A stretch of 64,000 bases of DNA from Bacteroidota bacterium (GCA_021324735.1 JAJPIO010000011.1:22612-86611); one strand, 5' to 3'; numbered from the stretch's first letter, positions 3,545 to 29,796 are shown. Notes: generated by a model not told the origin, from the letters alone. Made by a program: numbers and translations.

Positions 3545-3994
3545 TTGGGAACTAATTTTGACCTTTTTGTTGTTATATTAATGTTGATTTTCTTCCTTAA
3601 GAAAAATATGCTTAAATTACATCAAATCTCCCCTCTTAAATTCGGTCGGTCATCTAATGCTCTTCCCATTGAAGACTCGTTCGAAGACACTACTTCCTAT
3701 GCCGACGAGCCCCTATTCGAAGATAACTTCGATGAATTACAGGACCTCGATGAGGATGATCTCGATCATTACGACGATGCATTCCCCTTCTCGGAAGGTG
3801 ATCTCCGCTTTCTGCGGGACTTCATTCTGAGCTCTGCCACCTACGTGGAAGAGCTGGAATCTCTCGTCTGTGATAGCTCGGAGGATTTCTGGGAAGCGCG
3901 TGAACATGCATATCGCATTGTCACTGCGGCGCTTATTAATTACTTCCTCTATGAGATGGAAGAGACAGCCTCCGAAGCAGACTACCGAGACTAA
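3545..3994 (+). CDS. Highly acidic hypothetical protein; first gene after the AT-rich island boundary
   Basis: ORF of 149 aa, or 128 aa if translation starts at MLKLHQ (3609). About 30% D/E (EDSFEDTTSYADEPLFEDNFDELQDLDEDDLDHYDD...). It is preceded by a 200-bp AT-rich promoter-like stretch and sits directly upstream of the large terminase, co-oriented with it. Confidence 0.5.
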   Translation: MGTNFDLFVVILMLIFFLKKNMLKLHQISPLKFGRSSNALPIEDSFEDTTSYADEPLFEDNFDELQDLDEDDLDHYDDAFPFSEGDLRFLRDFILSSATYVEELESLVCDSSEDFWEAREHAYRIVTAALINYFLYEMEETASEADYRD

Positions 3995-4081: not shown

Positions 4082-5674
4082 ATGCCTAAGAAAAACCACC
4101 AAAATAAAGCTGGCCCTAAAAGCAAACCAAAAAATAAGGCAGACCCCAAACCAAAACGAACCGAAATTGAAACAGAACGAAATAAAGAACCGCCTCTCGA
4201 TCCGGTCACTCTCGATCTTCCGTCCTTCGCCGAAAAACTTCTCGATGTTCAATGCTGGCAAAAAATGCGTGAGATCTTCGATCTTGTAGAACGCGGCGAG
4301 CGCAAAATTTTAGTGCGCAGTTGCAACGGCGCTGGCAAAACCACCGCACTCGCCGCCATCTGTAATTGGTATTTTACTCACTACGATGATTCGATCGTAT
4401 TGACCACTGCTTCATCGTGGATTCAAGTACGAAGAAATCTCTGGGGCGAAATTCGACGACAAGCACGAAAGGGAAGGCTGTATTTGGATAAGGATATTAT
4501 TCGCGGCCCGACGAGCGTGCAAGCAAGCGACAAACATTTTATGATCGGCATTTCGCCGAATATCCCGGAGAACGCGATGGGCTTTCATGCACCGCACATG
4601 CTCATCGCTGTGGATGAAGCGACCGGGATCGATCACGAGATCGTGACCGCACTTCTCGGTAATCTCAGCAGCACCAATTCACAGATCGTCATGATCTGCA
4701 ATCCCATCGATAAAGATTCATATCCCTATGAAGCCGAACGCTCCGGTGAATGGAAGGTCGTTTCTATTTCCGCCTTCGATCATCCGAATGTGGTAGAGAA
4801 TTGCGAGGTCATTCCGGGTGCGGTCACCCGCGAGTGGATCGAGGACAGCGTTCGCGCATGGTCGTTCGAAGTGACTCCCGATGCATCCGAACCGCTTACA
4901 ACGCTACAGATCCCGTGGACCGACAAATGGTACCGGAGTAATGCGCCCGTTCAGGCTCGCATACTTGGCGAGTGGGCTCAGCTCGAGTCTGCAGGATTTA
5001 TTCCGATCGAACTCATCGAACGCAACGTGCGGAAAACACCATCCCTGTTTGGAGAACCTCATCATCAACCCTCTTCCGACACACGGCCACGAATGCGCGT
5101 TATGGGCGTTGATATTTCTCGCGGTGTTGGCAGGGATGCGACGATCTACGCATACTTCGATGTCGTCCCGGATGGACCTGATGTGCAGCGGCAGTTTCTC
5201 AGGACCTACGGTGATGACCTCATGCGAACTGCGGATCGGATACGGACGGAATACGAAAACGCTAAAGCACAAGGTATCGAACTTGTTATTGCGCTCGATG
5301 ATACTGGCTTAGGAGGCGGCGTGAGCGACCGATTGAAACGCATTGACATACCGTTCTTTCCGGTAAACTTCTGTCAAAGGCCGCACGGCTTTATTCGAGG
5401 TAAAGATATTGCGAACGCGAAAGCCGAAATGTTTTTCATTCTTCACGATGAACTGCTCGAAGGCAAAATTCAGATCGTCGACCTGCCGCGATTCCATCAG
5501 GAGTTATCTTCCATTCGCCTGGATGTAAGTAAAACTTCAACGGCCTACAAAATGGAAGACAAAGAGGAAACCCGCAAGCGCCTCCATCGTTCACCCGATT
5601 ACGCCGATGCTACGGCGCTCGCGCGATATGCTCTCTGGCTTCACAAATATTCGAAGAAGAATTGGTTGCTCTGA
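4082..5674 (+). CDS. terL: Phage terminase large subunit (ATPase plus RNaseH-like nuclease) with a Lys/Pro-rich N-terminal extension
   Basis: Walker A motif VRSCNGAGKTT and Walker B motif LIAVDEATGI. The C-terminal nuclease region contains MGVDISRGVGRDATIYAYFD and ALDDTGLGGG acidic residues. The first ~60 aa are KKNHQNKAGPKSKPKNKADPKPKR. Confidence 0.85.
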   Translation: MPKKNHQNKAGPKSKPKNKADPKPKRTEIETERNKEPPLDPVTLDLPSFAEKLLDVQCWQKMREIFDLVERGERKILVRSCNGAGKTTALAAICNWYFTHYDDSIVLTTASSWIQVRRNLWGEIRRQARKGRLYLDKDIIRGPTSVQASDKHFMIGISPNIPENAMGFHAPHMLIAVDEATGIDHEIVTALLGNLSSTNSQIVMICNPIDKDSYPYEAERSGEWKVVSISAFDHPNVVENCEVIPGAVTREWIEDSVRAWSFEVTPDASEPLTTLQIPWTDKWYRSNAPVQARILGEWAQLESAGFIPIELIERNVRKTPSLFGEPHHQPSSDTRPRMRVMGVDISRGVGRDATIYAYFDVVPDGPDVQRQFLRTYGDDLMRTADRIRTEYENAKAQGIELVIALDDTGLGGGVSDRLKRIDIPFFPVNFCQRPHGFIRGKDIANAKAEMFFILHDELLEGKIQIVDLPRFHQELSSIRLDVSKTSTAYKMEDKEETRKRLHRSPDYADATALARYALWLHKYSKKNWLL

Positions 5675-5678
5675 GTTT

Positions 5679-5850
5679 GTAGCCGTAGTTCGTAGCCGTA
5701 GCCTTCAGGCTACGCCGTAGGAATAGGCACCCTTACAAATCGTGCGAAGAATCTTCGATGTTCACCAATTGACAACCGTGTTGGCTTCCCACAGCCGCAA
5801 GCTAAAGCATGCGGCTACAATTCGTAGCCGTAGCCTTCCTAAAGCATGAA
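5679..5850. repeat. Dispersed intergenic repeat R1 (~135-bp family; contains hairpins CGTAGCC-ttca-GGCTACG and CCGCA-agctaaagca-TGCGG)
   Basis: About 75% identical over ~135 bp to 7337-7475 (R3). The core ccccacagccgcaagctaaagcatgcggctacaatt is identical to 6575-6612 (R2). Confidence 0.7.
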
Positions 5851-5871
5851 AAGCGAGAACGGCTTATGACG

Positions 5872-6348
5872 TTAGTTCGGCGCGATGAGGTAGCGAATAC
5901 TGCCTTGTATCTGGACGGAATCGTCGGGTAGTCCAACAGGCGACTGAATTGCAGTGATGGAGAATACGGTCGTATTGCCGGTATTGCTTGTCGGTGTGGG
6001 TGCGAAACTCACACCCCACCAGCCATCGCTCGCCTCCTGTGGTATCACATCGTAGCCAGAAGGTGGCGGAGGGTCGAACGTCATCACCATCGGTGGCTTT
6101 CCATCCGCACGTTTGGCCGGATCCGCCCACCTAAAATAAAGGCGGTAGAGCGTGGTGCAGTCACCTGCGGCCTTCGGAGACTTGAGGGTATAAGCCGCGG
6201 TGTATGAGATTGTAGTATTTAGTTGAGCGGTCTGAATATCGCCGCTGCAATCATCCGGAGGCGCGACGTTCCCGCTCGAATCATGACAACTGATATTCGT
6301 GAGCACCAGGACGGCGAGCACACACATATACAACAGAAGACGTTTCAT
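5872..6348 (-). CDS. Lipoprotein of unknown function (moron-like), paralog 1
   Basis: Signal peptide with a lipobox (MKRLLLYMCVLAVLVLTNISC). Shares the motif Y..YFRWADPAKRADG..PP with the downstream paralog. Confidence 0.55.
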   Translation of the reverse strand: MKRLLLYMCVLAVLVLTNISCHDSSGNVAPPDDCSGDIQTAQLNTTISYTAAYTLKSPKAAGDCTTLYRLYFRWADPAKRADGKPPMVMTFDPPPPSGYDVIPQEASDGWWGVSFAPTPTSNTGNTTVFSITAIQSPVGLPDDSVQIQGSIRYLIAPN

Positions 6349-6574
6349 ACAACCTCCGACAAGAAAAAAATGACAACTCTCAGAGCAAATATACAATGCT
6401 ACTTAATGGGCAGTGCAAAAAATCAGGATGGACAGTTGTCAAAACATATAACAAAGGCCGGTAAGGACGTGCGTTCAGCGGAGCCCGCGCGCGTGAGCGC
6501 AGTCGAAATCGGTACACAACCATAATGATGCTCGCAAACGCCGGGCTCGATATGTGGCAGATAACATTACCCGC

Positions 6575-6612
6575 TCCCCACAGCCGCAAGCTAAAGCATG
6601 CGGCTACAATTT
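6575..6612. repeat. Repeat R2 (core hairpin unit of the R1/R3 family)
   Basis: Exact copy of the R1 core ccccacagccgcaagctaaagcatgcggctacaatt. It ends in TACAATTTG. Confidence 0.65.
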
Positions 6613-6621
6613 GCGGCGACG

Positions 6622-7158
6622 CTACTTCTTCGGGAAGTTATTGTAAAAATAAATTCGGCAGACGATCTCTGTGCTATCGATGGCGGCGGCCTCCCAGTCG
6701 AGCCGGCAACCAACATAATACTGCGTAGTGGGATAACCGCTGTTCTTATTACCGATGTTGAAATCGATCACCCACCAATCTCCCATAATGAGATTTCCAT
6801 TAGCATCCATAACCGTATCACGACGAAACACGGGCGCGGGATGTGGAAAGTAAGCAAACTCGGCCAGCGGCTGAAAGGCATGCTCCAAATTTAGGAGCGG
6901 TGGCATATCGTTATCGATCGCGCGCTTGGCTGGATTCGCCCATCGAAAGTTGAAGATATACTCGGCTTCACAATCGTTGCGGGCCGTTGGCGTTTGAAGT
7001 TCGAAAAATTCGCCGTTATTATGTATGACCTTCTGAGCGATCACGTAATGCCCGCCCCCGCAATCGTCATTAACCGTAGCTTCCGAACCGGTTTTGCACG
7101 CCGAGAGCGCCATCGCAGTTAGCAGAAGAGAAAAGCGAACCATGCTATGAGTATTCAT
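6622..7158 (-). CDS. Lipoprotein of unknown function (moron-like), paralog 2
   Basis: Signal peptide plus lipobox (LLLTAMALSAC). The motif YIFNFRWANPAKRAIDNDMPP is paralogous to the 5872..6348 product. Confidence 0.55.
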   Translation of the reverse strand: MNTHSMVRFSLLLTAMALSACKTGSEATVNDDCGGGHYVIAQKVIHNNGEFFELQTPTARNDCEAEYIFNFRWANPAKRAIDNDMPPLLNLEHAFQPLAEFAYFPHPAPVFRRDTVMDANGNLIMGDWWVIDFNIGNKNSGYPTTQYYVGCRLDWEAAAIDSTEIVCRIYFYNNFPKK

Positions 7159-7336
7159 AATACTCCTCCTTAAGTCAGAAGGAAAATGCGCAAGCTAAAT
7201 GCCCGCCCGAATTAGGCGTAAATCGCGATTGAAATGGGCACTCCGGCATCGTTAAGCGCTCGGATCTCGGAAGAATCTTACGGGAGGATTAAAAATCTTA
7301 AAAGCTACTCGATACACTTTTGGTGCAGCGGACAAA

Positions 7337-7475
7337 GTTCGTGGCCGTAGCCTTTTAGGCTACGCCGTGGGGAATAGGCATCATCACGAACCCTGCGAAA
7401 GATCTTGTGACGGGTACCAATGACAACCATATCGCTTCCCAACAAACGCAAGCTGAAGCATGCGCTACATCTATT
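7337..7475. repeat. Repeat R3 (full-length homolog of R1)
   Basis: Collinear with R1: GGCCGTAGCC-tttta-GGCTACGCC hairpin, then gaataggca...tgacaacc...cgcaagctgaagcatgcgctaca. Confidence 0.7.
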
Positions 7476-9138
7476 CGATGCATTTCGGAGGCCGTTGAAA
7501 ATTCGAATCTGTGGCGATACGCTCTTGAAACGCCCTCGCTATATCGCTATAATGTGGCGAGCGGGTATCAACGAAGAATTCAAGCTCGTACAGATAGGGC
7601 ACGAGTGCAATAGGCACATAATTCCGAAATTCCGGGGACTGAGCCAACAGTGAATATTGTGATCCAATTAACCCGTGTCCTTCTTCAAAAATAGACTGAC
7701 ACGTATCCTGTGTATTTGTTCTGGGTATGAGTGGCAATATAATGAGGTCCGGTTTTTTCTCTACAATGAAATCGATAACCTGCTGCACATATTTGGCGTG
7801 GGCGATCTCATTCGTGTTAAGGCCGACGGGATCGATATGCCGAAGCTCCGAATAATACGGCAGTTCACCAGCATCAGCCCATGCCAAAGTGATTGAATCA
7901 TGCTGGGGAATGGCCCGCAACATTGTAGCAACTTCGAGATACGTATCGCGATCCGACTTAAGCCAACCGCGTGGTATTCGCATGAAACCCGTAGCAGCCA
8001 CAAACACCGCAATAACGAGAATCCCAAGCACTGTTGCACCACTCATGCGGAGCGCACCCAATCGCCAACAGGAAAGCTTTCGGGCGATACTCCCTGCCCC
8101 CGGTGCGGCAAGGCAAAATAGAATCGCTTCGATCGAAAGCGTGAATCTCCCATACCCGGCCTGCAGAAGATGCGAGAAAAGATAAAACGTGCTGAGCAAC
8201 ACGCACCACAAGAGTGCGCTACGAAGAACCGGGATGCGCCAAATGGCTCGAATACCTAGTATGGCAGGAATAACGAGAATGAGCGTCCGAATGTAAAATC
8301 TTCCGATCGTACCATAGCCCGGGAAAATGCGGCCGAGAAGTGTTTGCGAGGGTGCGGCCGACTGGACAACCTTCACATAGAACGAGTTCGGAAGCAAGTT
8401 GCCAAAATACCATAGCTTCCATAGTGCATATAATATCAACGGCGCAACAAAATAAGCGGCGAAGCTTCGCACCGTTGCACCTCGATCCTCAACTTGTTTT
8501 TGGAACAGGGCAACAAAGAGGAGAACAACACCTAACAGCGCACCCTCTGGTCGCACAAGAGCGGTCAGCGTTGCGAAAACAAATGCGGCATTAAGCCGAC
8601 CCGCTGAAAATGCCCATAGGGCGAACAAGAGCAGCATCACAAATACACTTGATTCGAGGCCGCTGTATGCGTTCATCCACGTCCAGGGATCGAGCAAGAA
8701 CAACACTGAAATCACTAGTGCAACTTTCCGCGCAAACAGAGACAGCGAGCCGGTTTGGATCGAAGCCAGGACCGGGAGAATAATACGATAGATCGCTATC
8801 GCCGACAAGCAAACTGCCAAGACGCCAATAAGCTGCGATACAAGGAGAAGATTAGATCCAAGCGCACTAAATGGCACCAGCAATAGCATATAGAGGAAAT
8901 TGGTGTAGCCTTCCGTATGAGCACCACCGGCATTCCATACGATACCAAGACCTTGTGCTACGTGCTGCGAGTATCGAAAGGTGATATAAGTATCATCGAG
9001 CACATACCCCATTCGCACGGGCCACCACAGCGTCCCAACCAGCAACGCGATCGTAACAAGTACGAACGACGAATTACGCGCAACGAACGGTAATTCGTCG
9101 CGCTTCGGGACTTCCACTTTCGTCGTCACATCTAACAT
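7471..9138 (-). CDS. Polytopic membrane protein, GT-C-fold glycosyltransferase-like (ArnT/PMT/arabinofuranosyltransferase-like)
   Basis: 555 aa with at least 10 predicted transmembrane helices. The N-terminal first-loop motif DDTYITFRYSQHVAQGLGIVWN resembles the DD-containing first extracytoplasmic loop of GT-C glycosyltransferases. It has a large C-terminal soluble domain. Confidence 0.6.
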   Translation of the reverse strand: MLDVTTKVEVPKRDELPFVARNSSFVLVTIALLVGTLWWPVRMGYVLDDTYITFRYSQHVAQGLGIVWNAGGAHTEGYTNFLYMLLLVPFSALGSNLLLVSQLIGVLAVCLSAIAIYRIILPVLASIQTGSLSLFARKVALVISVLFLLDPWTWMNAYSGLESSVFVMLLLFALWAFSAGRLNAAFVFATLTALVRPEGALLGVVLLFVALFQKQVEDRGATVRSFAAYFVAPLILYALWKLWYFGNLLPNSFYVKVVQSAAPSQTLLGRIFPGYGTIGRFYIRTLILVIPAILGIRAIWRIPVLRSALLWCVLLSTFYLFSHLLQAGYGRFTLSIEAILFCLAAPGAGSIARKLSCWRLGALRMSGATVLGILVIAVFVAATGFMRIPRGWLKSDRDTYLEVATMLRAIPQHDSITLAWADAGELPYYSELRHIDPVGLNTNEIAHAKYVQQVIDFIVEKKPDLIILPLIPRTNTQDTCQSIFEEGHGLIGSQYSLLAQSPEFRNYVPIALVPYLYELEFFVDTRSPHYSDIARAFQERIATDSNFQRPPKCIE

Positions 9139-9202
9139 TTGAGAGACATACTAACGCATCCTTCTTCTAATTCATCATTCATAATTCATCATTTCCTATG
9201 AC

Positions 9203-10507
9203 ATGAACCTCAATCTTGGAAAATACTCACTCACATTAAAACGAACGAAGCCTCCGAGCGCACAAGAACGCGCGCAGGCAAGCAGTGTCGGGAGCGGCTT
9301 GTTGCCGTGGCCGCCAGGCGGCGTGCCGGCGGTCTATCCCTCGGCTCGCGAAGATCTCGTCGAAAATTTCCAGCAAATTCGCGAGACCGTTGCTATTTGC
9401 ATGCACGCTCGAAGCGAGGCGATCGGGCGAGGGAAATTTCATGCCCTCGACAGATCCGGTAACGGACCACGGGTAAAAGGTAACGGACCGCGGGTAAAGG
9501 GTAAGGATCCGGCTCAACTAAGCCTTTTCCCATCTCCCTTGTCTAGCGACCATCCTCTATCGAAGCTTCTCGCGAATCCGAATCCGCTCTTCGACATGAG
9601 CGATCTGCTCGAGCTGTCGAGCCAATGGCTCGATGCGACGGGCAATTCGATCTGGTTAAAGGTACGCGATGGCAACGGTACCGTCGTTGAGCTATGGCCC
9701 GCAAGCTCGCTTTCGTTCATCATCGATCGCGGCAACGACGGACTTCCGCTCTCGTACCGCTTCCTGCCTTCGAATACCATCATTCCGGCAAACGATGTCA
9801 TTCATATTCGGCGCCCGGATATTCGGATGAGCCCGTTCTTCGGTCACGGCGTAATTTCGGACATCCTCGATACTGCCAAAGCCGATACGGCGGTCCGTCT
9901 TTTTCAATCTCGATTTTTCGAGAACGACGCATGCCCACGAGCGGTGCTCCGCTGGCCGCCAGGGGCACTTATGACGCAGGACGAAATGGACCGACTTCGC
10001 AATGCATGGGAATCGAAATACGCCTCACCGGCGAACGCAGGGCGCATCGGAATACTGCCGGATGGCGGCGAAGTGCAGCTGCTCGGCTCCGGCGCGAAAG
10101 AGCTCGATTTCTCGCGCTCGAAAGAAGAGCTCCGCAATGCTATTCGCGAGGCGTTTCGCGTACCGAAAATATTTTTTGGCGATACCGATAATGTCAATCT
10201 TTCGAATGCGGAAACGAGCTATTCGGTCTTCATGCGCGATGTCGTCGATCACGCGCTTGCCAAACATGCGCAGGCGCTTACGCGCGGATTAGCCGCGGAA
10301 TTCGAATCACCCGATCGCCCGGCTGGAAATATCATCATCGAGCATGAATCGCTCGTGACCGAATCCGACGATCGATTCCTCGCTCGTGTAGCGGAGCTAA
10401 AACAAGCGATGACGATCGACGAACAGCGGGCCCTTGTGGGACTCACTCCGCTCTCCAATGGCCGCGGCAACGCCTTTATTCTTGGAAATCAGATCATTGC
10501 TCCATAA
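9203..10507 (+). CDS. Phage portal protein (HK97-family-like)
   Basis: 434-aa ORF in the terminase-portal-protease-capsid order. The central and C-terminal regions are portal-like. It contains an 18-bp tandem repeat encoding GNGPRVKGNGPRVKG. Confidence 0.8.
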   Translation: MNLNLGKYSLTLKRTKPPSAQERAQASSVGSGLLPWPPGGVPAVYPSAREDLVENFQQIRETVAICMHARSEAIGRGKFHALDRSGNGPRVKGNGPRVKGKDPAQLSLFPSPLSSDHPLSKLLANPNPLFDMSDLLELSSQWLDATGNSIWLKVRDGNGTVVELWPASSLSFIIDRGNDGLPLSYRFLPSNTIIPANDVIHIRRPDIRMSPFFGHGVISDILDTAKADTAVRLFQSRFFENDACPRAVLRWPPGALMTQDEMDRLRNAWESKYASPANAGRIGILPDGGEVQLLGSGAKELDFSRSKEELRNAIREAFRVPKIFFGDTDNVNLSNAETSYSVFMRDVVDHALAKHAQALTRGLAAEFESPDRPAGNIIIEHESLVTESDDRFLARVAELKQAMTIDEQRALVGLTPLSNGRGNAFILGNQIIAP

Positions 10508-10508
10508 T

Positions 10509-11069
10509 ATGAATATCCTCCACAAACAACTGATCGCAACCTCGGTCGATACTGCGCCATTGCCACACTCCGTTCGCAAGGACGGCAACATGAACCCTCG
10601 TCAGCGGTGGCTAAAGATGGCGACCGGCGACGTCGACCGAGCCGGTGACATTATCGTGATCGCCGGAATCGAGGCGGATAACTTCCTTAAGAATCCCCAA
10701 TTCCTCTGGCAGCACGGCGCGTCCGGCTCGCTCATCAATACGATCGGCCGCATTCTACAATTAGTACAAGCCGAGAATGCGCTCTATGCTCTCGCCGAAT
10801 ATGCGTCCGCCGAGCTATCACCGCTTGCCGAACAAGTCTATCAAATGGATGTGGCTGGCCTGCTGCCTGCCAATTCGATCGGCTTTCGTCCGCTTGAATA
10901 CGAAGCGAATGAGTTCGGCGGATTCACTTTCACCAAATGGGAGCTCGTCGAATGCTCCAAAGTCGAACTGCCGATGAATCCAAATGCAGTGGACAACGGA
11001 GAGTGGAGAATGGAGAACTCTCTCTCTTCGGGTTCTGCAGATCTTGCAGTCGTTTGGCTGCTCCAATAA
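10509..11069 (+). CDS. Prohead maturation protease, HK97 family (peptidase U35)
   Basis: DRAGDIIVIAGIEADNFLKNPQFLWQHGASGSLINTIGRI matches the U35 signature (D..GD.i..GAF...L...P.LLW.H....PIG). The start codon overlaps the portal stop (TAATATG). Confidence 0.7.
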   Translation: MNILHKQLIATSVDTAPLPHSVRKDGNMNPRQRWLKMATGDVDRAGDIIVIAGIEADNFLKNPQFLWQHGASGSLINTIGRILQLVQAENALYALAEYASAELSPLAEQVYQMDVAGLLPANSIGFRPLEYEANEFGGFTFTKWELVECSKVELPMNPNAVDNGEWRMENSLSSGSADLAVVWLLQ

Positions 11070-11141
11070 ATGCGATACGTATCTGATAAGCAACGTATCC
11101 CAATTCTCCATTCACCACTCTCCATTCTTCATTTTTTTTAT

Positions 11142-11210
11142 GAGCGTAAGCTAAAGCATACGCCTACGAATTCACCCCTACGAGCGTAAGCTGAAGCTTA
11201 CGACTACCAC
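11142..11210. repeat. Repeat R4 (two tandem hairpin units of the R-family)
   Basis: GCGTA-agctaaagca-TACGC and CGTAAGC-tgaa-GCTTACG. Stems stay paired through compensatory substitutions relative to R1-R3. It lies between the protease and capsid genes. Confidence 0.65.
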
Positions 11211-11231: not shown

Positions 11232-12497
11232 ATGAATATCAACGAACAAGACAACACCATCACCGCAACACGCGACGAATTCAATACCATCATCGACAAA
11301 GCGCTCGACCGAAAACTCAAGTCAATCCCGGATCGAAGCGCCATAACTGCGCTCAGTTCTAAGTCCTCAGTTCTTAGTTCTGAATCGGGAATATCTCCAT
11401 CACTCGGGAGCACTCAGGACTCAGCACTTAGCGCTAAGATTCAGAAGACATTTCGATTCTTCAATGCTGTAGCGCAGAACGATCATGCCACACTGCGATC
11501 GATCATGCAGAGTTACGAGCCGGAATACGTTCGTACACTTTCGCCGCAGGTCGAAGGAACGGCCTCTGCCGGTGGCTATCTCGTGCCACCGGAATTCTAC
11601 TCCGATGTTCTCTTCCTGCTGAACGAATACGGCTTCGCACGTAAGTATTGCGCGCAGATCCAAATGTCGTCGAACGTGCTGAATGTATCGACGCTCACCG
11701 GCAAGCCCTCCGTTTCGTGGGTAAGCGAGACCAGCACGATCCCAACCAGCAAAGGCACCTTCGGACGCCTCACGCTCACCGCGCAAAAGCTGGCAGCCAT
11801 CTATCCGATCTCTAACGAACTCCTGCAGGACGCGAATGTCGATGTCTACAATACGATTCTTCGCATCTTTGTCGAAGTTTTCGGCGCGGAGGAAGATACC
11901 CAGGTCTTCCGCGGCGTTGGCTCTCCGTTCACCGGCATTCTCAACACCGACGGAGTATCGACCACTTATTTAGGCGCAAGCTCGACCTCCGGTAAAACGA
12001 AATATACTGATATCACGCTCGACGATCTCATCAATCTCGTTCAGTCGATCGGTCCGGCGCAGCAGCGCGACGCCGTGCTCTTTGTCGAGCAAAACACGCT
12101 CACCGATCTTCTCAAGAAAAAGGATTCGCAGAGCCGCTACTTGTGGGATATTGCAACGTCGAACGACCCACAGATTAGTGGCGCGAATGGATTCAGCGCA
12201 ACGAACCTGAAATTCCACGGATATCCGGTGGTAGCGCTGCCAAACGGAGTTATCATCGAGAGTTATGATGGCTCGAGCCACCCGAGCACACCATTCGCAC
12301 TCTTCGGCAACCTCAAGACAGCCGGCTGTTGGCTTGGCTCGCGCGGCGGAATGGAAATGCGTATTTCCTACGACGCTTCCTCCGATAACATGAACGCCTT
12401 CACCAACGATCTGCAGCTTCTCCGTGTGACGGAACGCATTGCCTTTGGCGTCGGCCAGCCGGGATACCTTGCGGTGCTTTCAACGAGTGCGTCGTAA
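11232..12497 (+). CDS. Major capsid protein, HK97 fold, with an N-terminal delta/scaffolding-like region
   Basis: 421 aa. The motif SAGGYLVPPEFYSDV is characteristic of HK97-family capsid proteins. The N-terminal ~100 aa are predicted helical and fit a delta domain. The gene follows the protease. Confidence 0.85.
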   Translation: MNINEQDNTITATRDEFNTIIDKALDRKLKSIPDRSAITALSSKSSVLSSESGISPSLGSTQDSALSAKIQKTFRFFNAVAQNDHATLRSIMQSYEPEYVRTLSPQVEGTASAGGYLVPPEFYSDVLFLLNEYGFARKYCAQIQMSSNVLNVSTLTGKPSVSWVSETSTIPTSKGTFGRLTLTAQKLAAIYPISNELLQDANVDVYNTILRIFVEVFGAEEDTQVFRGVGSPFTGILNTDGVSTTYLGASSTSGKTKYTDITLDDLINLVQSIGPAQQRDAVLFVEQNTLTDLLKKKDSQSRYLWDIATSNDPQISGANGFSATNLKFHGYPVVALPNGVIIESYDGSSHPSTPFALFGNLKTAGCWLGSRGGMEMRISYDASSDNMNAFTNDLQLLRVTERIAFGVGQPGYLAVLSTSAS

Positions 12498-12500
12498 CCT

Positions 12501-13082
12501 ATGCCTACTTTTACTTCTCCAGTGACCGTCGCCGATCTGCAGACGTATCTGCGAGACGTCTCGACGGACACGACCCTTCTCGGCTTTTACCAAACGCTGC
12601 TCGATACCGCGACCGAATCGGTCTACACCTGGCTCGACCGCGATTATACGGCGCTTGCAACGAAGACCGATCGCTTCTGGGGCGATGATACCGAGTTCTA
12701 CGCCCCGCATTATCCCGCGGGCAGCTTCGTGAGTTGGAGCTATATCGATATGAACGGCTTCGTCACCAGCCTCGACATTAGCGATCTCCTCATTCGAGCC
12801 AATGGCTATCTCGTGCAGGCAAAAACAAAGCGGTTCGTTTCGGGCGCAGAACATGCGATCACGTACAAGCAGCCCGCCACGCTCGTATGCCCGGAAACCG
12901 TAAAGCAGGTGATCGTCGAGATCGCAGCCCAGCTCTTCGATGAGAGCAATCAAGGCGCCGGCACACGCGGACTCTTATTGGCTACATCCAACGATGGCAT
13001 AAGCACCGATCGTGAGCGCTTCCTCGACCTCTCGGAGCGACACAAAGAAATGCTCCGGCCTTACAAACGCTATCCGGTCTAA
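12501..13082 (+). CDS. Head-tail connector/adaptor (gp6-like) with extra C-terminal sequence
   Basis: The N-terminus VTVADLQTYLRDVSTDTTLLGFYQTLLDTATESVYTWLDRDY matches the gp6-like connector pattern. At 193 aa it is about twice the usual length. Located directly after the capsid gene. Confidence 0.55.
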   Translation: MPTFTSPVTVADLQTYLRDVSTDTTLLGFYQTLLDTATESVYTWLDRDYTALATKTDRFWGDDTEFYAPHYPAGSFVSWSYIDMNGFVTSLDISDLLIRANGYLVQAKTKRFVSGAEHAITYKQPATLVCPETVKQVIVEIAAQLFDESNQGAGTRGLLLATSNDGISTDRERFLDLSERHKEMLRPYKRYPV

Positions 13083-13163: not shown

Positions 13164-13607
13164 ATGACAAGAGAACTTCTCTTCTTCAATAACTTCGAGA
13201 CACAATTTGGCGAGTTTAGCGGGTGGCGTTCGCTTGCCGAGCAACGCGGTGTGAAAGATCTTGCACCCGGCGATTATCCTGGCTTCGAGGTCACTCCGGG
13301 CGAAGCCCGATATACCGAATACGATACCTACGGACATCCCTATGGCGGCGAGCAGGATTTTACGCTTCGCATCGTCTTCGCGCATCCGCAGTGTGCATTC
13401 CAACCGGTGCGTACGATGCACGCGGAGTTCGTCTCGCTCGTCGAGCAGTTTTTTACCGGCGGATACATCTCGCCAACGCTCGATCTCAGCGATCGCGCGC
13501 GGATCAATGGTATCACACTGCTCAAGATCGAATCACCGGTCACGAATAAGATCGCCACGCATACCACCATCATTGTGCGAGCACAATACTCGTTCACATT
13601 AATATAA
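13164..13607 (+). CDS. Hypothetical phage structural or head-completion protein
   Basis: 147-aa ORF co-oriented in the morphogenesis operon. It is preceded by the conserved ATAATTCATCCTTCCT upstream motif. No recognisable domain. Confidence 0.45.
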   Translation: MTRELLFFNNFETQFGEFSGWRSLAEQRGVKDLAPGDYPGFEVTPGEARYTEYDTYGHPYGGEQDFTLRIVFAHPQCAFQPVRTMHAEFVSLVEQFFTGGYISPTLDLSDRARINGITLLKIESPVTNKIATHTTIIVRAQYSFTLI

Positions 13608-13644: not shown

Positions 13645-14178
13645 GTGAATGATACTTTCCGGCGACGCCTATTTCAGCCTACCTTTACCCTTACCCTTTA
13701 CCCCATACCCTACTCTATCCTCTGTCATCTATCCACTACCCTGATGACCAATCTCTTTCTTCGGTATCGCATGACCGATACCGACCCGTGGACCACATTT
13801 CCGGACATCACCAGCGCGTTTCCCGGTCAGCCTACGGGCAGCTTGCCGGTCTCTTCCACGACCATCGCAAGTGAGCCGCTTACCGTCGAGCCCGGCGCTG
13901 GTGGACAACTCTATCTCGAATTCCCTACCACCGACGACGACCATCTTGCCCTGCGGGTAACATGCCCGCCTATTCCTCTCGCGTTAGCAACGACGATCCT
14001 AACATTCCTCATGCAATATCGTCTTGCGCCATCGCATGAAGCAAAGCACGAGCGGTTCGGGCAAGGTGGCTTCATCAGTGCTTCACTTTCGCTCATCAAA
14101 GCGCAGGAGCGCAATGGCATGCTGCATTTGGAGTTTCGCCTTGTAGCAACGATGAACGATGCTCTAATCAACTTCTAA
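13645..14178 (+). CDS. Hypothetical phage protein; the start codon may be internal (13744 or 13771)
   Basis: ORF in the operon with no motif. Alternative in-frame ATG codons lie closer to a plausible N-terminus. Confidence 0.4.
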   Translation: MNDTFRRRLFQPTFTLTLYPIPYSILCHLSTTLMTNLFLRYRMTDTDPWTTFPDITSAFPGQPTGSLPVSSTTIASEPLTVEPGAGGQLYLEFPTTDDDHLALRVTCPPIPLALATTILTFLMQYRLAPSHEAKHERFGQGGFISASLSLIKAQERNGMLHLEFRLVATMNDALINF

Positions 14179-14179
14179 T

Positions 14180-14794
14180 ATGCTCTATACTCTCTTATTA
14201 CTCGCACTCTCGCCCACCACGTCCGTCGAGCAAGCGGTACAACACGCTTTAGCAGCGGATTCCCTCGCAGCCCGGCAAACAATGCTCGTTCCTTTTCGCG
14301 AAGAGATCGACCGTGCGGCCGCAAAATACACACTGCCCTCTTCGCTTATTGCTGGTGTTATACAGGAAGAATCTCGCTTCGATGAATGGGCGACGAGAAG
14401 CGAACCCGGTTATCTCGCGAACAAACGCATTCGGCATGAAGCGATACGCTGGGCGCGCGTGCATCCCGGCAGCGCGACCGCACTCACCGAACTCAACGAT
14501 CGCTCCCGATCGTACGGCCTCATGCAGATCATGGGTGAGACCGCACGGCAGCAGGGCTGCTCAATGCGGTTCCTCGCTGAACTCTACATGCCCGACAGCG
14601 CTATCGATCACGGTGCGCGATTACTGAAACGCCTTATCCTTCGGTATCACGGCGATACACTTTCGGCTATCAGCGCGTATAACCAGGGCAGTGCACGTAA
14701 GCGGCGCGGCACATTCGCTAATGCTCGTTATGTCTATCGGGTAACCGTCGCATGGCGCGCGTACGATACTCTCTTCCGGAAAGGAGATGAGTAA
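14180..14794 (+). CDS. Lytic transglycosylase (SLT domain) with signal peptide
   Basis: Catalytic motif AGVIQEESRFD, plus GLMQIMG and SAYNQG. Has an N-terminal signal peptide. Confidence 0.8.
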   Translation: MLYTLLLLALSPTTSVEQAVQHALAADSLAARQTMLVPFREEIDRAAAKYTLPSSLIAGVIQEESRFDEWATRSEPGYLANKRIRHEAIRWARVHPGSATALTELNDRSRSYGLMQIMGETARQQGCSMRFLAELYMPDSAIDHGARLLKRLILRYHGDTLSAISAYNQGSARKRRGTFANARYVYRVTVAWRAYDTLFRKGDE

Positions 14795-15291
14795 TGCAGA
14801 TCAAATGGCAATATGCAGCAGCGCTCGTTGGCATTGCTTTCTTCATTGGTGTGCTGATCTCTTACAGAAGCTCTGCACCAACAACCAACGGCATCTCACA
14901 CGAGAAGCAAGTCTACCGGATGAGATTTGACACTGCGAAAACAACTGTGGCTGTGCCAGTGGGACGCATACGACTACGAGGACCGATGGCGCACAAACTG
15001 GCTGCTGATTCTACAACAAGCATCGCGTGCTTAGATACTATTCTGAGAATGGATACTACGGCCTTAGCGCCGGATACCCTCTCTGTTTGTTTTGCGCGAG
15101 ATACCTTCTCACTTCGGTTGGGCTTTAGCCCGAGGCAGAAAGAAGTATCGGTGCCGTATATCGCACACGATACATTCTACTCGCAGATCGATACGATCCG
15201 TATTGCCGGGGGAAGCTCGCGAGCGTGGTACGATGATGCGCTTATTATCATCCTTTCTATTGCCGCAGGAATAATTCTGGGACGGCTATAA
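14794..15291 (+). CDS. Membrane protein with N- and C-terminal transmembrane helices (possible lysis accessory)
   Basis: Translationally coupled to the transglycosylase (TAATG overlap). Transmembrane helix at residues 8-24 and a C-terminal helix ALIIILSIAAGIILGRL. Confidence 0.45.
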   Translation: MQIKWQYAAALVGIAFFIGVLISYRSSAPTTNGISHEKQVYRMRFDTAKTTVAVPVGRIRLRGPMAHKLAADSTTSIACLDTILRMDTTALAPDTLSVCFARDTFSLRLGFSPRQKEVSVPYIAHDTFYSQIDTIRIAGGSSRAWYDDALIIILSIAAGIILGRL

Positions 15292-15325
15292 GAATGCGAT
15301 AAAAAGCATAGCCATAAAAAGAGAA

Positions 15326-15354
15326 CGGGTAACGAGCATATCACTCGTTACCCG
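15326..15354. terminator. Bidirectional intrinsic terminator between the head module and the convergent cargo gene
   Basis: Perfect 11-bp inverted repeat CGGGTAACGAG-catatc-CTCGTTACCCG, flanked by T-rich or A-rich tracts on both sides. Confidence 0.6.
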
Positions 15355-15378
15355 CTTCTTATTTGCGTTACTTAACCT

Positions 15379-18300
15379 TTAATCCTTCTGCAGGATAAAC
15401 TTACGAATGACCGTATAACCGTTCATCGTAATGCGCGCGAAGTACGTGCCTTCGGACATATTCTGCGTCGGAATGGAGAGCGTATGTTCGCCCTTCTCCA
15501 TCGGGCCATTTGCAATCTGCGAAACCGAAGCACCGAGCAAGTCAACCACATCGACCGAGACGTTCGCTTCGAGGTTCGTCGTGAATTTCAGCGTAGCCGC
15601 ACTCGAGCCTTTATGTGCCGGATTCGGAATGACCTCGATGCCCTGCATCGGCTGTAGCTTGCCTTGCAACGCGATCATCATGATCGAATCCGAACATGTA
15701 AGATTGAGTCGGACTGGCACTACGTCGCCAGCCGATTGAGCAGACATGCTGCAACGACCAAAGTTTGGATCGGACTGGTTGAACGCCGATTGGCCAATGC
15801 TAACCGTACCTTGGTCAGTATTACTGATGGAAGGCACCATTGTAACTGTCGCAAGATCGGAATTCGCTGGAAGACCAGTATTGGGAATACCTGTAATCTT
15901 GATTACCATTGGTCCCGTCGCACTAGTCGATTGATCAGCTGCAGTTGCAACGCTTTGTATCGGCTTGTTCCTCGTTAAAATACCGGTTGGATACTGAAGC
16001 TGAATTGTGAGATCCGTCGCACCAGTACCTGCTGGTATCGGCTCAACATTAATGATTTTAAAGACCGCCTGTTGTACGCCATCCACTCTAATCGGCATTG
16101 CATTCGATGAAGCATCGAGTGCCAATCCAAGATGAATATTATACTGTGAGCCCGTCGTCACACCAATTAGATGCAGCGTCACTGTTCCGTGATCGGTATT
16201 GATAGTTAGTATATCGTTATCGCTACCGGTTGCATCGGGATTGTATTGTAAAGTGATCTGAATGGATTGACCACTGGTTAACGTGACGGGACCCGTAAAC
16301 CCGCTCAGTGAGAACTTACTTCCGCCTGCCAACGACACATTGTTAACGATCACGGTACCGTTATTCGCAGTTATCGTATAGGTCTTTTTCAATATCACAC
16401 AACGCGGTGTCGAGTAATTACTATCGAGCGGTTGCGGCCCGAGCGTAAATGTCGTCACCTGATGCGTCGAGCAATCGCGGAAGGTTACCGAATACGGCTC
16501 CGTGATCGTGCGGCCGCTGATATCTGTCAGTGTGATCGTGCCGGAAAGCGTCTGTCCAACAGTACCGGTAAAGTGTACTGTAAAGACCTGGTTACTGCCG
16601 GTATTGATCGTCACTGGAAGCGTCGGGCTTGCGAGGCTTACCCCACTACCAGCCGCGAAGGTCTGAATGATGAACGGCAAGCAATCGCCGCCATTAGCGA
16701 CCGTAAACGTGAGATCGGTATCGCCACACGGGTTAGCCGCGAGCGCCGTCGGAAGTACGTTGGAGACGATCGAAGGAGGCAATATTTTACCGATCACCGT
16801 GAAGGATGTGCTCGGCGCCTCTTGTCCGCCAGTGCTCGTAACCCCAAACGTGATCTGGTCGGTATCGCTAGCTCCGTTTACAGTAGTATCCGAAAGCGAT
16901 TGCGGCTTCAGACACACCGTAAAGTGCAGCGAGTCCTTTGCACGGATCGTATCATTGTCAAGCGTTACCCGGAACGCCGCATGGGTCGGTCCCGTCAGGA
17001 GCCGGATGAGGCCAGGCGTACACGAGGTATTCAGTATCGTACCGCGAATACAGTTCGAATCGCAATAGCGGATCGTGCCAAGAGCTAACGTGTCCGGTCC
17101 ACCGATTGAGGCGACTACACCGGTTATGCAATGTGCGTGCATACCAATGATCTGCGGTCCTTTGGTATCTTCCGCATACGTCAGGACGATACTTCCGGTG
17201 TTATCCTGATCGCTGCCCGTGCAGGAGCACGGAATATAGCGAATCGTGATCGCCGTATCGTGGCCAGGTTTGAGTGAGAACGGCAGCGTCGGTCCCGACA
17301 CCATTTGGAAATTCGAAGCGCCCGTCAACTGGATCTTCGTCAATGTGAGCGGCACGCAGACCGGGCTGATCTTTAGCGTTCGCGTTTGTGACGAATCACA
17401 GCAACTGACCCCTCCAAATTCGATCTTACTGGGGCTTACCGCCCCTTCATACGTAATAGCATTTTGAACATTGAATGAGACCGAGATAGAGGTATCAAAG
17501 TGTTCAACAGAGGCACACTGAGTACCAGTGGTCCCGACATTGAAATGGAATGTAAAGGTCGCGTTATGCTGTCCCGGATCACACTTGGGAATAAGTACCG
17601 GTATCTTGAGCAGATTATATGGTCCGATCTTGATCGGGAAGTGCAAGGGCGGCTTCGACCCAAGGCTATCGATCTGGAAGTAACTGCCCTGCGGACCTGT
17701 AACGTCGATACCTTGCAAGATAATGGTATCGCAGGTCGTATTGAGGAAGTAGACCGCTGAATCATGGATCGAGCAGCAGTCTTTTACATTCTCGTTGAAC
17801 CCTCGAAGTGTTACGCCAACCGTCGTCGTCGTTACACCGGTCACACTGAAGCTAGTCCCGACAAAGGTGGTATCGCATCGTGCTCGCACGTTAACACCAA
17901 TGCTGGGCGCTTGACCAGGCGTCCTTCGTAGAGTGCCAGCAAAGTACACGTGTACATCGGCGCAATCGCCAGGTCCTAAACGGAAGGGCGTTGACGGCGC
18001 AAGTAACTGGATGATACATTGATCGCCGGTAACATCGAATCCGTCGACCTGCATGTTTTCACAACAACTTTGATTACAGATCTGGAGGACGGTATCAAGC
18101 TGAGTACACGCTGGCTCTCGAATATTGATCTTATTCGGAACAGCAGTAATTTTCGATGCAACACCAGCGCCAGTCACGTGGACAATAGTATCTACCGGTA
18201 CGCCATTACGAGTAAAATGGAAATGGTAATCTGCCGCATCGGACGACGGTGTTGTCGGTCGATATTGAATATCGATCGACGTGCTAACTGGAAGCGACGG

Positions 18301-19614
18301 AACCGCCGGAGCACACAGGGGGAATGGCGTTGTGAGCACCGCCGAAAACGTATCTGTTGCAATATTGCCTAACGGAACGATCGAATCACCTACGAGCGAC
18401 GGATTGGTTGCGCAATTACAACCAAAGACGTGCACCATCGTATCGATACGGAAGCAACCGGCTGTCCTAAAGTTGATCGTATCAGGCCAGATATGGATGT
18501 CCGGCGAGGTCGGACGGGTTGCGGTATAGACGATCTTGTACTGAAAGCTCCATACTTTCGTCGGCGATACATAGAATCTGGTATCGACATTCGGGAATGG
18601 CGATGACGTCTTCGAACCGAGCGGCGCCCAGTTCTTTCCATCATCGACCGAAAACCACATTCCGCCGCCGCCAATGGAGTCATATTCGACCGCAGCGAAC
18701 ATCGCACAGGCGTCGCCCGCCATCGATTCGGTCATGGTGTCGAGGCAGAACGCTGCCTGCGGGAAGAATCCGTATCCGTAACTATCGGACTCCTGTACGC
18801 CGCCTACGCACGGCTGAATAGTAGCGCATGTATTATTATGCGCACCAAAATAACGTGGTGTACCAGCCACAGCCATTGGCTGCCATGACTCATAATAGGT
18901 ATTGGTCCTCGTCCAGGTATTTCCACCATCGGTGGTGCGCTTCCACCAGTTAAAGGGACCAAAGCAGCCGGAGCCATCCGTAGCGACGATACCATTACTA
19001 GCATCGCTGAAGGCAAAGCCGGTATAATATTTTGCGGTATCCGCGCGAGTCCATGTCGTGCCCTGATCGGTCGACTTCATCAATCCCGAATCCTGGCTAC
19101 TGACCAGTAAGAGACCGCTCGTGGCGTTGTAGTAGATACCCCGGCAATTCGTCGGTGCACCAGTAATGAAATTCCATGTTGAGCCGGCATCAGTGGTCAA
19201 GAGGACACCGGAAGCCGGTGGTAACGTTGCACCATACACGGCCGCAAAGCCCGTATTTGCATCCACCCACGCAAAGTCCGTTACCCATCCAGAGGTCCAA
19301 CTGCTGGTATTGGTAATGGTCGAAGGGGTCCATGTCGAACCTTCGTTCTTCGTGAACTGGATATCCATACCGTCGCTCAGGTAACCGTTCTGCGGCACAC
19401 CGCTGACGCGTGGTGCACTTGCAGCATCGTTAAATTTAAGGACGCGGATGGTATCGTTAAACGTCGTCGCAAGCGGAGACCACTGAGCGCGCAGTGAACT
19501 CGAAAACGACAGAAGAAGACTAACAGCGAGTAAGAACGCAAAGCGATGGATCGTGCGAGAAGCACGATGCGAAGCAGAAGGAAGGAATACTGAGGATAGT
19601 AACTGATTTCTCAT
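15379..19614 (-). CDS. Giant secreted T9SS cargo protein with an N-terminal BNR-repeat beta-propeller
   Basis: Repeated S/T-x-D-x-G-x-T-W motifs (TKNEGSTW, TDAGSTW, STDQGTTW, TTDGGNTW, SVDDGKNW). A C-terminal ~80 aa T9SS sorting domain ends ...EGTYFARITMNGYTVIRKFILQKD. The likely start is MRNQLL at 19614, which precedes a signal peptide; the ORF is open to 19746. Confidence 0.8.
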   Translation of the reverse strand: MRNQLLSSVFLPSASHRASRTIHRFAFLLAVSLLLSFSSSLRAQWSPLATTFNDTIRVLKFNDAASAPRVSGVPQNGYLSDGMDIQFTKNEGSTWTPSTITNTSSWTSGWVTDFAWVDANTGFAAVYGATLPPASGVLLTTDAGSTWNFITGAPTNCRGIYYNATSGLLLVSSQDSGLMKSTDQGTTWTRADTAKYYTGFAFSDASNGIVATDGSGCFGPFNWWKRTTDGGNTWTRTNTYYESWQPMAVAGTPRYFGAHNNTCATIQPCVGGVQESDSYGYGFFPQAAFCLDTMTESMAGDACAMFAAVEYDSIGGGGMWFSVDDGKNWAPLGSKTSSPFPNVDTRFYVSPTKVWSFQYKIVYTATRPTSPDIHIWPDTINFRTAGCFRIDTMVHVFGCNCATNPSLVGDSIVPLGNIATDTFSAVLTTPFPLCAPAVPSLPVSTSIDIQYRPTTPSSDAADYHFHFTRNGVPVDTIVHVTGAGVASKITAVPNKINIREPACTQLDTVLQICNQSCCENMQVDGFDVTGDQCIIQLLAPSTPFRLGPGDCADVHVYFAGTLRRTPGQAPSIGVNVRARCDTTFVGTSFSVTGVTTTTVGVTLRGFNENVKDCCSIHDSAVYFLNTTCDTIILQGIDVTGPQGSYFQIDSLGSKPPLHFPIKIGPYNLLKIPVLIPKCDPGQHNATFTFHFNVGTTGTQCASVEHFDTSISVSFNVQNAITYEGAVSPSKIEFGGVSCCDSSQTRTLKISPVCVPLTLTKIQLTGASNFQMVSGPTLPFSLKPGHDTAITIRYIPCSCTGSDQDNTGSIVLTYAEDTKGPQIIGMHAHCITGVVASIGGPDTLALGTIRYCDSNCIRGTILNTSCTPGLIRLLTGPTHAAFRVTLDNDTIRAKDSLHFTVCLKPQSLSDTTVNGASDTDQITFGVTSTGGQEAPSTSFTVIGKILPPSIVSNVLPTALAANPCGDTDLTFTVANGGDCLPFIIQTFAAGSGVSLASPTLPVTINTGSNQVFTVHFTGTVGQTLSGTITLTDISGRTITEPYSVTFRDCSTHQVTTFTLGPQPLDSNYSTPRCVILKKTYTITANNGTVIVNNVSLAGGSKFSLSGFTGPVTLTSGQSIQITLQYNPDATGSDNDILTINTDHGTVTLHLIGVTTGSQYNIHLGLALDASSNAMPIRVDGVQQAVFKIINVEPIPAGTGATDLTIQLQYPTGILTRNKPIQSVATAADQSTSATGPMVIKITGIPNTGLPANSDLATVTMVPSISNTDQGTVSIGQSAFNQSDPNFGRCSMSAQSAGDVVPVRLNLTCSDSIMMIALQGKLQPMQGIEVIPNPAHKGSSAATLKFTTNLEANVSVDVVDLLGASVSQIANGPMEKGEHTLSIPTQNMSEGTYFARITMNGYTVIRKFILQKD

Positions 19615-27317: not shown

Positions 27318-27334
27318 GGAGCTTCAAATGGCTT

Positions 27335-29710: not shown

Positions 29711-29763
29711 GACTGAATTCCGGCTGAATTAGCCGCAATAAAGATATTTTACACCAGAGCTGT

Positions 29764-29796
29764 AACTCGGAGCCGTGTTCCGAGTTTTAGTTTTGG
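29764..29796 (+). terminator. Intrinsic terminator after paralog B
   Basis: AACTCGGA-gccgtgt-TCCGAGTT hairpin followed by TTAGTTTTGG. Confidence 0.55.

Follow-up and report, generated by a model that had tools for sequence, protein, structure and literature searches.

Gene content of the junction between terminase and portal

We analyzed a 64,000-nucleotide stretch of DNA from a Bacteroidota bacterium (GCA_021324735.1 JAJPIO010000011.1:22612-86611; the window), which carries a cluster of phage-derived head genes. Open reading frame (ORF) listing and profile searches located the genes for the large terminase (TerL; 4082-5674, + strand; phrog_2 E=1.1e-25; 50-66% identity to the TerL of related clusters) and the portal protein (9203-10507, + strand; PF04860 E=1.3e-41; 57-72% identity across the clade). 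The junction between them is split by three minus-strand genes, which encode two paralogous lipoproteins and a polytopic membrane protein of 555 amino acids (aa). These genes had been noticed in an earlier reading made from the sequence alone (the sequence-only reading), and their coordinates and gene content were confirmed. Because all three ORFs have conserved homologs elsewhere, they represent real genes and not chance ORFs.

Lipoprotein 1 (lipo1; 5872-6348, - strand) is of the short subfamily of its family. Its longest ORF extends to 6396 (174 aa), but translation probably begins at the ATG at 6348, which yields a protein of 158 aa in agreement with the database protein P0123. Lipoprotein 2 (lipo2; 6622-7158, - strand; 178 aa) was assigned by its LSAC lipobox and the family alignment to the long subfamily, which carries an MPPL..EFAYFPH insert. 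The gene for the 555-aa protein (7471-9138, - strand) lies next to the portal gene; structure modelling, a Foldseek search and a family profile point to an AftB-like GT-C membrane glycosyltransferase. A divergent, AT-rich intergenic region of 64 bp (9139-9202), with TTCATCATTCA / TTCATAATTCA repeats inside, separates the starts of these two genes.

Predicted GT-C fold of the 555-residue protein

Searches of Pfam, PHROGs and NCBIfam with the three proteins gave no usable match. The 555-aa protein was modelled with AlphaFold2 (AF2; pLDDT 90.7, pTM 0.91). It has ~12 long transmembrane (TM) helices and a C-terminal alpha/beta domain (residues ~397-555). When the model was compared with the PDB using Foldseek, the top matches were AftB, ALG9, AftA, ALG12, STT3, ArnT and PglB. 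All 19 matches at E<=1e-3 were GT-C enzymes or the GT-C-fold protein PIG-U, a subunit of the glycosylphosphatidylinositol (GPI) transamidase. A profile of the GT-C family also matched the sequence of AftB (E=1.9e-17, query positions 6-325), with the DD motifs of the two aligned.

The motif DDTYITFRYSQHVAQGLGIVWN comprises residues 48-69 and follows directly after TM1. In an alignment of 49 homologs, D48 and D49 were at least 90% conserved, and R55, Y56, E162, N251 and K256 were invariant. The protein thus has the polytopic membrane domain and the conserved acidic DD in the first extracytoplasmic loop that mark the GT-C superfamily. Judged by the model and the alignments, the 555-aa protein is a GT-C glycosyltransferase, as the sequence-only reading had suggested from the DD-containing first loop. 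A transporter, the alternative that a structure and remote-homology check was meant to reveal, was excluded by the GT-C fold of the AF2 model in Foldseek and by the profile match to AftB. We found 174 homologs, mostly in metagenome-assembled genomes (MAGs) of Candidatus Kapabacteria and Bacteroidota, some of which carry the Pfam domains PIG-U, PMT_2 or Glyco_transf_22. Note that the label 'arabinofuranosyltransferase' on JGI homologs is an automatic annotation.

AftB, a mycobacterial arabinofuranosyltransferase (PDB 9dlf/9dlh), resembles the model most closely in structure (Foldseek E=5.6e-8, TM 0.54) and is the only significant sequence match among the comparisons, at an identity of ~18%. The two proteins share a layout in which a polytopic domain, with the DD in its first outer loop, precedes a soluble domain at the C-terminus. 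However, the present host is a Gram-negative Bacteroidota relative without arabinogalactan, and both donor and acceptor are almost certainly different. Moreover, AftB is a housekeeping cell-wall gene, whereas the GT-C described here is embedded among phage-derived genes. All characterised GT-C enzymes use a polyprenyl-phosphate-linked sugar. By its fold, DD motif and homology to AftB, the polytopic inner-membrane enzyme would transfer a sugar from a polyprenyl-phosphate carrier onto a glycan or glycoprotein of the envelope, acting at the periplasmic face. A surface-glycan role is the most reasonable biochemical inference from the predicted structure and the sequence relationships.

Conserved position of the GT-C gene

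We next compared the locus with related clusters. In all 17 related loci, which come from different Kapabacteria MAGs, an ortholog of the GT-C gene separates TerL from portal, on the opposite strand and beside the portal gene. When one genome per GTDB species was scanned with the GT-C, close orthologs (43-46% identity) turned up in Kapabacteria-type MAGs only. Each of them was located by tblastn on the opposite strand between TerL (50-63%) and portal (57-70%), with the capsid gene (71-79%) nearby. The loci reached in this way are L004, L005, L006 and L009, and further orthologs looked up on contigs of 0.06-1.9 Mb, including the large contigs L003, L095, L096, L097 and L104, showed the same arrangement. 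A metagenome scan that started from the portal gave 11 loci, which were counted where portal identity was at least 57% and enough flanking sequence was available; every such locus has the GT-C in the same place. The sequence-only reading had called for a comparison of presence and absence among related elements, and its outcome was a GT-C universal in the clade (17/17) and lipoproteins in only two of the 17 clusters.

No GT-C was found in the outgroup clusters L101, L102, L103, L092 and L094, which are chromosomal and tail-less and have portal proteins of ~50% identity. The TerL-portal junction of L094 is a gap of 1.1 kb only, and in L101 (portal 51%) it is occupied in place of the GT-C by a Peptidase_S41 gene (8207-9910), a member of the tail-specific protease family. 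The absence of the GT-C from the outgroups and the peptidase in L101 argue for a single capture in the ancestor of the clade, at a junction that tolerates insertions. By these comparisons the GT-C is an ancient, fixed member of the head cluster, apparently acquired in a single event long ago and retained since. L101 has an HTH_3 regulator divergently upstream, which is also present in L102 and L103, but not in the window.

Paralogs of the GT-C (31-38% identity) occur in the same genomes in host glycan loci (L007 and L008), which contain arrays of polytopic glycosyltransferases and a DegT aminotransferase. In a distance tree, the GT-C copies of the head clusters formed one clade relative to these paralogs. 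The host arrays (L007:5125-14801 and L008:3405-14802) consist of 5-7 consecutive polytopic proteins of ~500-560 aa, some of which are PMT_2 GT-Cs and several of which have no Pfam match, with DegT adjacent. Each has the appearance of a large glycan locus with multiple GT-Cs, of a kind typical for these genomes.

The GT-C had been taken for part of a moron cassette. Its presence in all 17 clusters, its monophyly and its co-divergence with the portal (see below) do not support a sporadic accessory gene. Sporadic presence was found solely for the lipoproteins.

Rapid divergence of the GT-C

Pairwise distances of GT-C and portal were correlated (Mantel r=0.61, p=0.002), at least as strongly as those of TerL and portal (r=0.42). 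The same sister pairs, L095-L096 and L006-L097, were recovered for GT-C and portal. The shared sister pairs and the Mantel correlation thus indicate that the GT-C travels with the portal side of the cluster.

The GT-C diverges fastest of all genes in the cluster, with a mean pairwise distance of 0.45 compared to 0.27 for the portal and 0.20 for the capsid. In the pair L090 and L084, TerL (87%), portal (85%) and capsid (85%) are similar, whereas the GT-C is only 53% identical. Tandem GT-C copies are present in L004 and L104. The GT-C of the window forms the deepest branch and is at most 48% identical to any other copy. All copies are full length and have kept the catalytic residues. As far as sequence divergence can tell, such retention together with rapid type divergence fits a surface-glycan specificity gene under diversifying pressure.

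In a separate case, L084 and L085 (capsid genes at 10561 and 10003, respectively) have the same similarity to the window in TerL, GT-C, portal and protease, and their capsids differ in this respect (81% vs 76%). This suggests a swap of capsid alleles between otherwise near-identical clusters.

Lipoproteins in a variable slot

Both lipoproteins have signal peptides that end in a conserved cysteine (LSAC in lipo2). They match each other in BLASTP (E=4e-10), with 36% identity over 59 aa, including the FRWA(D/N)PAKRA core, and 24% identity overall. In the family alignment, lipo1 and lipo2 represent two old subfamilies, short and long. They are therefore paralogous lipoproteins, as the sequence-only reading had proposed; a recent tandem duplication was rejected on the basis of the 24% overall identity and the two old subfamilies. 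The AF2 model of lipo1 is an 8-stranded beta-sandwich (pLDDT 82).

The lipoprotein family is small, with 15 proteins among 5.8 billion in a word-indexed search and 101 cluster representatives among 1.84 billion in an exhaustive hidden Markov model (HMM) search. Judged by its database distribution, it is restricted to Kapabacteria and is found mostly elsewhere in host chromosomes. The lipo2 relatives P0125 (57% identity, on another contig) and P0135 (40%) lie in host contexts without head genes, and P0133, a further homolog of lipo1, is likewise surrounded by ordinary host DNA. P0135 and the window derive from one JGI sample. Location in host DNA that lacks the capsid module, which would speak against a phage-borne cassette, was thus found for the lipoproteins (P0133, P0135 and P0125) and not for the GT-C.

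Within the head clusters, the GT-C and TerL genes leave a slot between their 3' ends, which is occupied by lipoproteins in two of 17 cases. One is the window, with two lipoproteins, and the other is L086, with a single lipo1-type lipoprotein (35% identity) that is the only same-slot homolog of lipo1. The slot otherwise contains a second tandem GT-C in L004 (between portal and main copy) and L104 (on the TerL side), a MazF-like toxin-antitoxin pair in L006, a 202-aa protein in L003 and nothing in L005 and L095. On this comparative evidence the lipoproteins are lineage-specific local cargo in a variable slot. The proposal that the three genes form one cassette is contradicted by this distribution and by the ordinary chromosomal contexts in which the family is otherwise found.

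Defence-like cargo was observed in variable slots of the cluster in other genomes, at L003:15181-21794, L095:13148-14047, L097:9671-9946 and 14229-18256, and L006:11651-12313. It includes a methyltransferase with SLFN/AlbA and a ResIII nuclease, a CAP12/PCTIR TIR-domain protein, SMC_N with a methyltransferase, a GIY-YIG protein and the MazF-like pair. The cluster may act as a hotspot for defence-like cargo.

Organization of the complete head cluster

The conserved gene order is orf149, TerL, GT-C, portal, protease, capsid, adaptor, two proteins of unassigned function, SLT and a membrane protein. The first gene encodes an acidic 149-aa protein (orf149; 3545-3994, + strand) that has no Pfam, PHROG or NCBIfam match. 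Its C-terminal ~55 aa are conserved, with 71-78% identity in L090, L091, L093 and L095-L097 and 43-51% in the outgroup clusters. The gene always lies upstream of TerL, at variable distance, and may encode a small terminase or a regulator.

Downstream of the portal, the S78 prohead protease (PF04586 E=2.8e-5, phrog_80 E=1e-12) is called as a gene of 159 aa at 10590-11069 (+ strand; longest ORF from 10434). It is followed by the HK97-type major capsid gene (11232-12497, + strand; PF05065 E=2.6e-42; 70-81% identity across the clade) and a head-tail adaptor (12501-13082, + strand; phrog_442 E=4e-9; 63-71%). The next two genes, g147 (13164-13607, + strand) and g177 (13645-14178, + strand), are both conserved, at 48-57% identity within the clade and 26-35% in the outgroup. 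Their profiles matched no PDB sequence, and PHROGs gave no match to g147, g177, orf149 or g165. By position, g147 and g177 may be head-completion or neck proteins. The cluster continues with an SLT lytic transglycosylase (14180-14794, + strand; PF01464 E=2.5e-18; 54-70% identity) and ends with g165, a membrane-anchored protein of 165 aa (14794-15291, + strand; 43-47% identity).

The next gene after g165 is convergent and encodes a 1455-aa cargo protein of the type IX secretion system (T9SS; 15379-19746, - strand). On the TerL side, the cluster is flanked by a glucan phosphorylase gene (408-2729, - strand), identified by ORF listing and profile searches. The remainder of the window is housekeeping, including Dxs, exonuclease VII and further T9SS cargo proteins. 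Two repeat features were noted in passing. The portal gene contains a 21-nt tandem duplication (9458-9499), so that its variable N-terminal region has a repeated peptide, GNGPRVK-GNGPRVK. Positions 23952-32265 of the window encode three paralogous T9SS cargo proteins in tandem (1121, 791 and 798 aa), all of which have an IgGFc_binding domain and a Por_Secre_tail sorting domain.

A probable resident, domesticated cluster

Neither an integrase nor any replication, lysogeny or tail gene was recognized by Pfam, PHROGs and NCBIfam scans, be it in the cluster or in the rest of the 64-kb window, although tail genes could lie elsewhere in the genome. This agrees with the sequence-only reading, which had described a capsid module without tail genes. 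Att-like direct repeats flanking the cluster were searched for, and none were found. More than 17 loci of this phage-derived structural cluster were identified in Kapabacteria and Bacteroidota MAGs, with capsid identities of 70-81% and housekeeping flanks.

The TerL-side flank of glucan phosphorylase (63-66% identity) and enoyl-CoA hydratase (ECH) is shared by the window, L090 and L096, with the phosphorylase inverted in the window relative to the other two. On the far side of g165, the window, L090 and L004 have a T9SS cargo gene. Host genes have broken up the run of head genes in L003, L009, L095, L096 and L097, and the head genes are still 70-81% identical; the interrupting genes in other genomes include RibD_C, outer membrane protein (OMP) beta-barrels, Ig-domain and WD40 proteins, and T9SS cargo. 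Protease and capsid no longer adjoin the portal in L006 and L097, yet TerL, GT-C and portal are still together. As a further observation, a second copy of the final ~33-35 capsid codons was seen 3-3.6 kb downstream of the intact gene in L003 (391-495) and L102 (16712-16810), with the duplicates bracketing inserted host genes (WD40 and T9SS/BNR). From this pattern, insertions seem to target the 3' end of the capsid gene and to regenerate it.

Relatives among phages were sought as well. Alignment searches of IMG/VR found no close portal and no relative of the GT-C. In a phage collection of 50,697 records there was no match to the GT-C, and the best match to the capsid was 28% identical. The same neighbours in three lineages, the conservation of the head genes in spite of interruption and the lack of phage relatives are the signature of a resident, domesticated cluster resembling a gene transfer agent (GTA), and not of a prophage or satellite, as far as gene content and synteny indicate. 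A mobile element is at odds with these shared housekeeping neighbours and with the missing integrase, replication and tail genes.

To our knowledge, GTAs have been studied almost only in Alphaproteobacteria, and none has been described for Kapabacteria or Bacteroidota relatives. We also know of no GTA with an embedded GT-C glycosyltransferase, and found none in the literature searched. Like a GTA, the window cluster, which is known here from its genes, lacks replication and integration genes, is conserved across a host clade and is chromosomal. It also shares purifying selection with GTAs such as FpGTA of Faecalibacterium (PMC12946183) and RcGTA. FpGTA, which is compact and podovirus-like, has a main operon of similar size (~10.5 kb; PMC12946183). 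In contrast to GTAs, tail and receptor-binding genes are not recognisable in or near the window cluster, clusters of its type are interrupted by host genes in many genomes, and particle production and DNA packaging are putative.

Phage-inducible chromosomal islands that form capsids (cf-PICIs; bioRxiv 10.1101/2025.02.11.637232) share with the window cluster a head-only gene set of terminase, portal, protease, capsid and connector, and the absence of a tail. However, the equipment of cf-PICIs includes an integrase as well as modules for regulation and replication, and these islands move between species. None of these parts lies between the glucan phosphorylase and the T9SS gene, and clusters of the window type keep the same chromosomal neighbourhood across lineages, as the phosphorylase (63-66% identity) attests. 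In the gtrABC operons of Salmonella and Shigella phages (PMC3688519), a membrane glycosyltransferase located among phage genes likewise modifies a receptor glycan, and such genes diversify quickly and switch type. The window cluster differs in having neither the GtrA flippase nor the GT2 partner GtrB (Pfam, NCBIfam and PHROG scans of the cluster ORFs detected no GtrA or GT2), in not lying beside int/att, and in being neither sporadic nor carried on a mobile prophage.

Intergenic repeats and regulatory sequence

A palindromic hairpin repeat with the core GYRAGCTRAAGCWTRCG is present directly 3' of lipo1 (5784-5822), 3' of lipo2 (6573-6611; 97% identical), at the end of the GT-C gene, where it overlaps the stop codon (7435-7473), and as tandem copies between protease and capsid (11133-11171 and 11179-11207). 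All five copies in the 64 kb lie inside the head cluster, compared to 0 expected, and their stems co-vary between copies. One further copy of this type was found in L091 (4779-4795), and other species have different palindromes resembling miniature inverted-repeat transposable elements (MITEs) at the same intergenic positions. Based on their sequence and placement, the hairpins are probably genome-specific intergenic repeats or terminators. An integron attC-like nature was considered and rejected, since the repeats are short and without an R' core or integrase.

In the region between GT-C and portal, a TTCATCATTC-type motif similar to the repeats of the window was found upstream of the portal gene in L003, L004, L006, L090 and L096, and not in the remaining loci. 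Considered as a possible mark of other operon starts, the TTCATCATTCA motif was not enriched in the window (4 matches vs 1.5 expected), and scans for sigma-70 promoters and terminators were not clearly above background. An autonomous moron unit would have its own promoter and terminator, often on the opposite strand; the three genes lie on the opposite strand and each is followed by a hairpin, and the promoter scan was not above background.

Explanations for the conserved arrangement

We consider it fairly probable that the locus is a composite, in which an ancient, fixed GT-C and separately acquired lipoprotein cargo reside in a domesticated head cluster. An AftB-like GT-C would have been captured once, in the ancestor of one Kapabacteria clade, landing in the TerL-portal junction. 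It would then have been co-inherited with the portal side, in keeping with its constant position, monophyly and co-divergence, and would have remained intact while diverging 2-3-fold faster than the head genes and switching type between near-identical modules. Most plausibly, the enzyme would set or mask a surface receptor, either for phages or for the cluster's own possible particles. The two lipoproteins would have been added as lineage-specific cargo in the slot between GT-C and TerL. A more far-reaching version is doubtful in our view. It holds that the GT-C serves the particles of a class-wide Kapabacteria system, tail-less and either GTA-like or for capsid export, as an integral, co-regulated component that writes a surface-glycan address, so that particle and receptor specificity would be inherited and would switch type as one unit.

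Several points weigh against the composite explanation. The direct functional link of the GT-C to the head genes is one that we infer, and donor, acceptor and particle production are only putative. The conserved position may simply be inherited synteny. The cluster has no GtrA/GtrB-like genes that could act as partners in providing a lipid-linked sugar donor, and the lipoprotein fold gave generic beta-sandwich matches only. The divergent region between GT-C and portal is not conserved in all loci, and is replaced by MITE-like insertions in about half of them. Hidden paralogy that followed tandem duplication, or a general tendency of membrane proteins to evolve faster, may account for part of the rapid GT-C divergence. 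Finally, the trees of TerL and portal disagree: L095 and L096 are 93% identical in portal vs 63% in TerL, and L006 and L097 88% vs 53%. The TerL of L095 is closest to that of L088 and L003. This incongruence implies that the TerL-side half of the cluster was recombined or replaced, with a likely breakpoint at the variable slot between TerL and GT-C. Inheritance was therefore not purely vertical, and some horizontal exchange or residual mobility is possible.

A simpler account is that the GT-C is a passenger, a host envelope-glycan gene that landed in the junction once and was kept by vertical inheritance without any functional or regulatory link to the head cluster. This is possible, but we think it rather unlikely. 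It would accommodate the wide occurrence of the broader GT-C family in many phyla without phage association, the paralogs in host glycan loci, the many unrelated host genes (RibD_C, OMP, T9SS cargo, WD40) inserted in the cluster elsewhere and the incomplete conservation of the divergent intergenic region; the S41 peptidase in the corresponding junction of L101 also shows that this site tolerates insertions. However, the GT-C is the only inserted gene kept in all 17 loci, at divergences where the synteny of the flanks and the remaining junctions have changed. Through recombination events it has gone with the portal side, and the trio of TerL, GT-C and portal stays together even where protease and capsid have separated from the portal (L006 and L097). 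The proposal of the sequence-only reading, a recently acquired moron cassette in which GT-C and lipoproteins arrived together on a mobile head-only satellite or prophage remnant and mediate superinfection exclusion or lysogenic conversion, fares worse and is improbable. The GT-C is universal in the clade and monophyletic, the lipoproteins are of different old subfamilies and are not co-distributed with it (2/17 loci), and the cluster keeps a fixed chromosomal neighbourhood; the integrase, replication and regulatory modules of a satellite are missing, IMG/VR has no related GT-C or portal, and the phage collection has no related GT-C. These findings outweigh the orientation opposite to the structural genes, the hairpin after each cassette gene, the defence-like genes in variable slots elsewhere, the modification of O-antigen receptors by GT-C enzymes of phage gtr operons (PMC3688519) and the head-only gene content reminiscent of cf-PICIs (bioRxiv 10.1101/2025.02.11.637232).

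It is more improbable still that the GT-C acts in release, together with SLT and g165, in breaching the envelope or in lysis, for example by consuming or diverting polyprenyl-phosphate precursors upon induction. Cell-wall synthesis and GT-C enzymes depend on one undecaprenyl-phosphate pool, and a shared pool of this kind would be compatible with such a role, as would the fact that the conserved cluster ends in SLT and a membrane-anchored protein. However, the GT-C is on the opposite strand, far from SLT, and its fast type-switching is not expected of a lysis factor. The outgroup clusters lack the GT-C between TerL and portal, but SLT was not detected in the retrieved parts of those loci, which therefore do not bear on a pairing of the two. 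We know of no lysis system that uses a GT-C. As for the lipoproteins, a PliG-like inhibitor directed at SLT is a weak idea that we note in passing.

Significance

The composite explanation places an envelope glycosyltransferase, locked between terminase and portal and evolving like a specificity determinant, in a cluster that has spread through an uncultured lineage. If the GT-C is a passenger, the locus would record a dated gene capture at a permissive junction, and the gene would be a useful marker for this cluster family. If the enzyme is indeed tied to particles, this would be the first capsid system with its own fixed receptor-building or receptor-masking enzyme, and would bear on the choice of recipients by gene-transfer particles.

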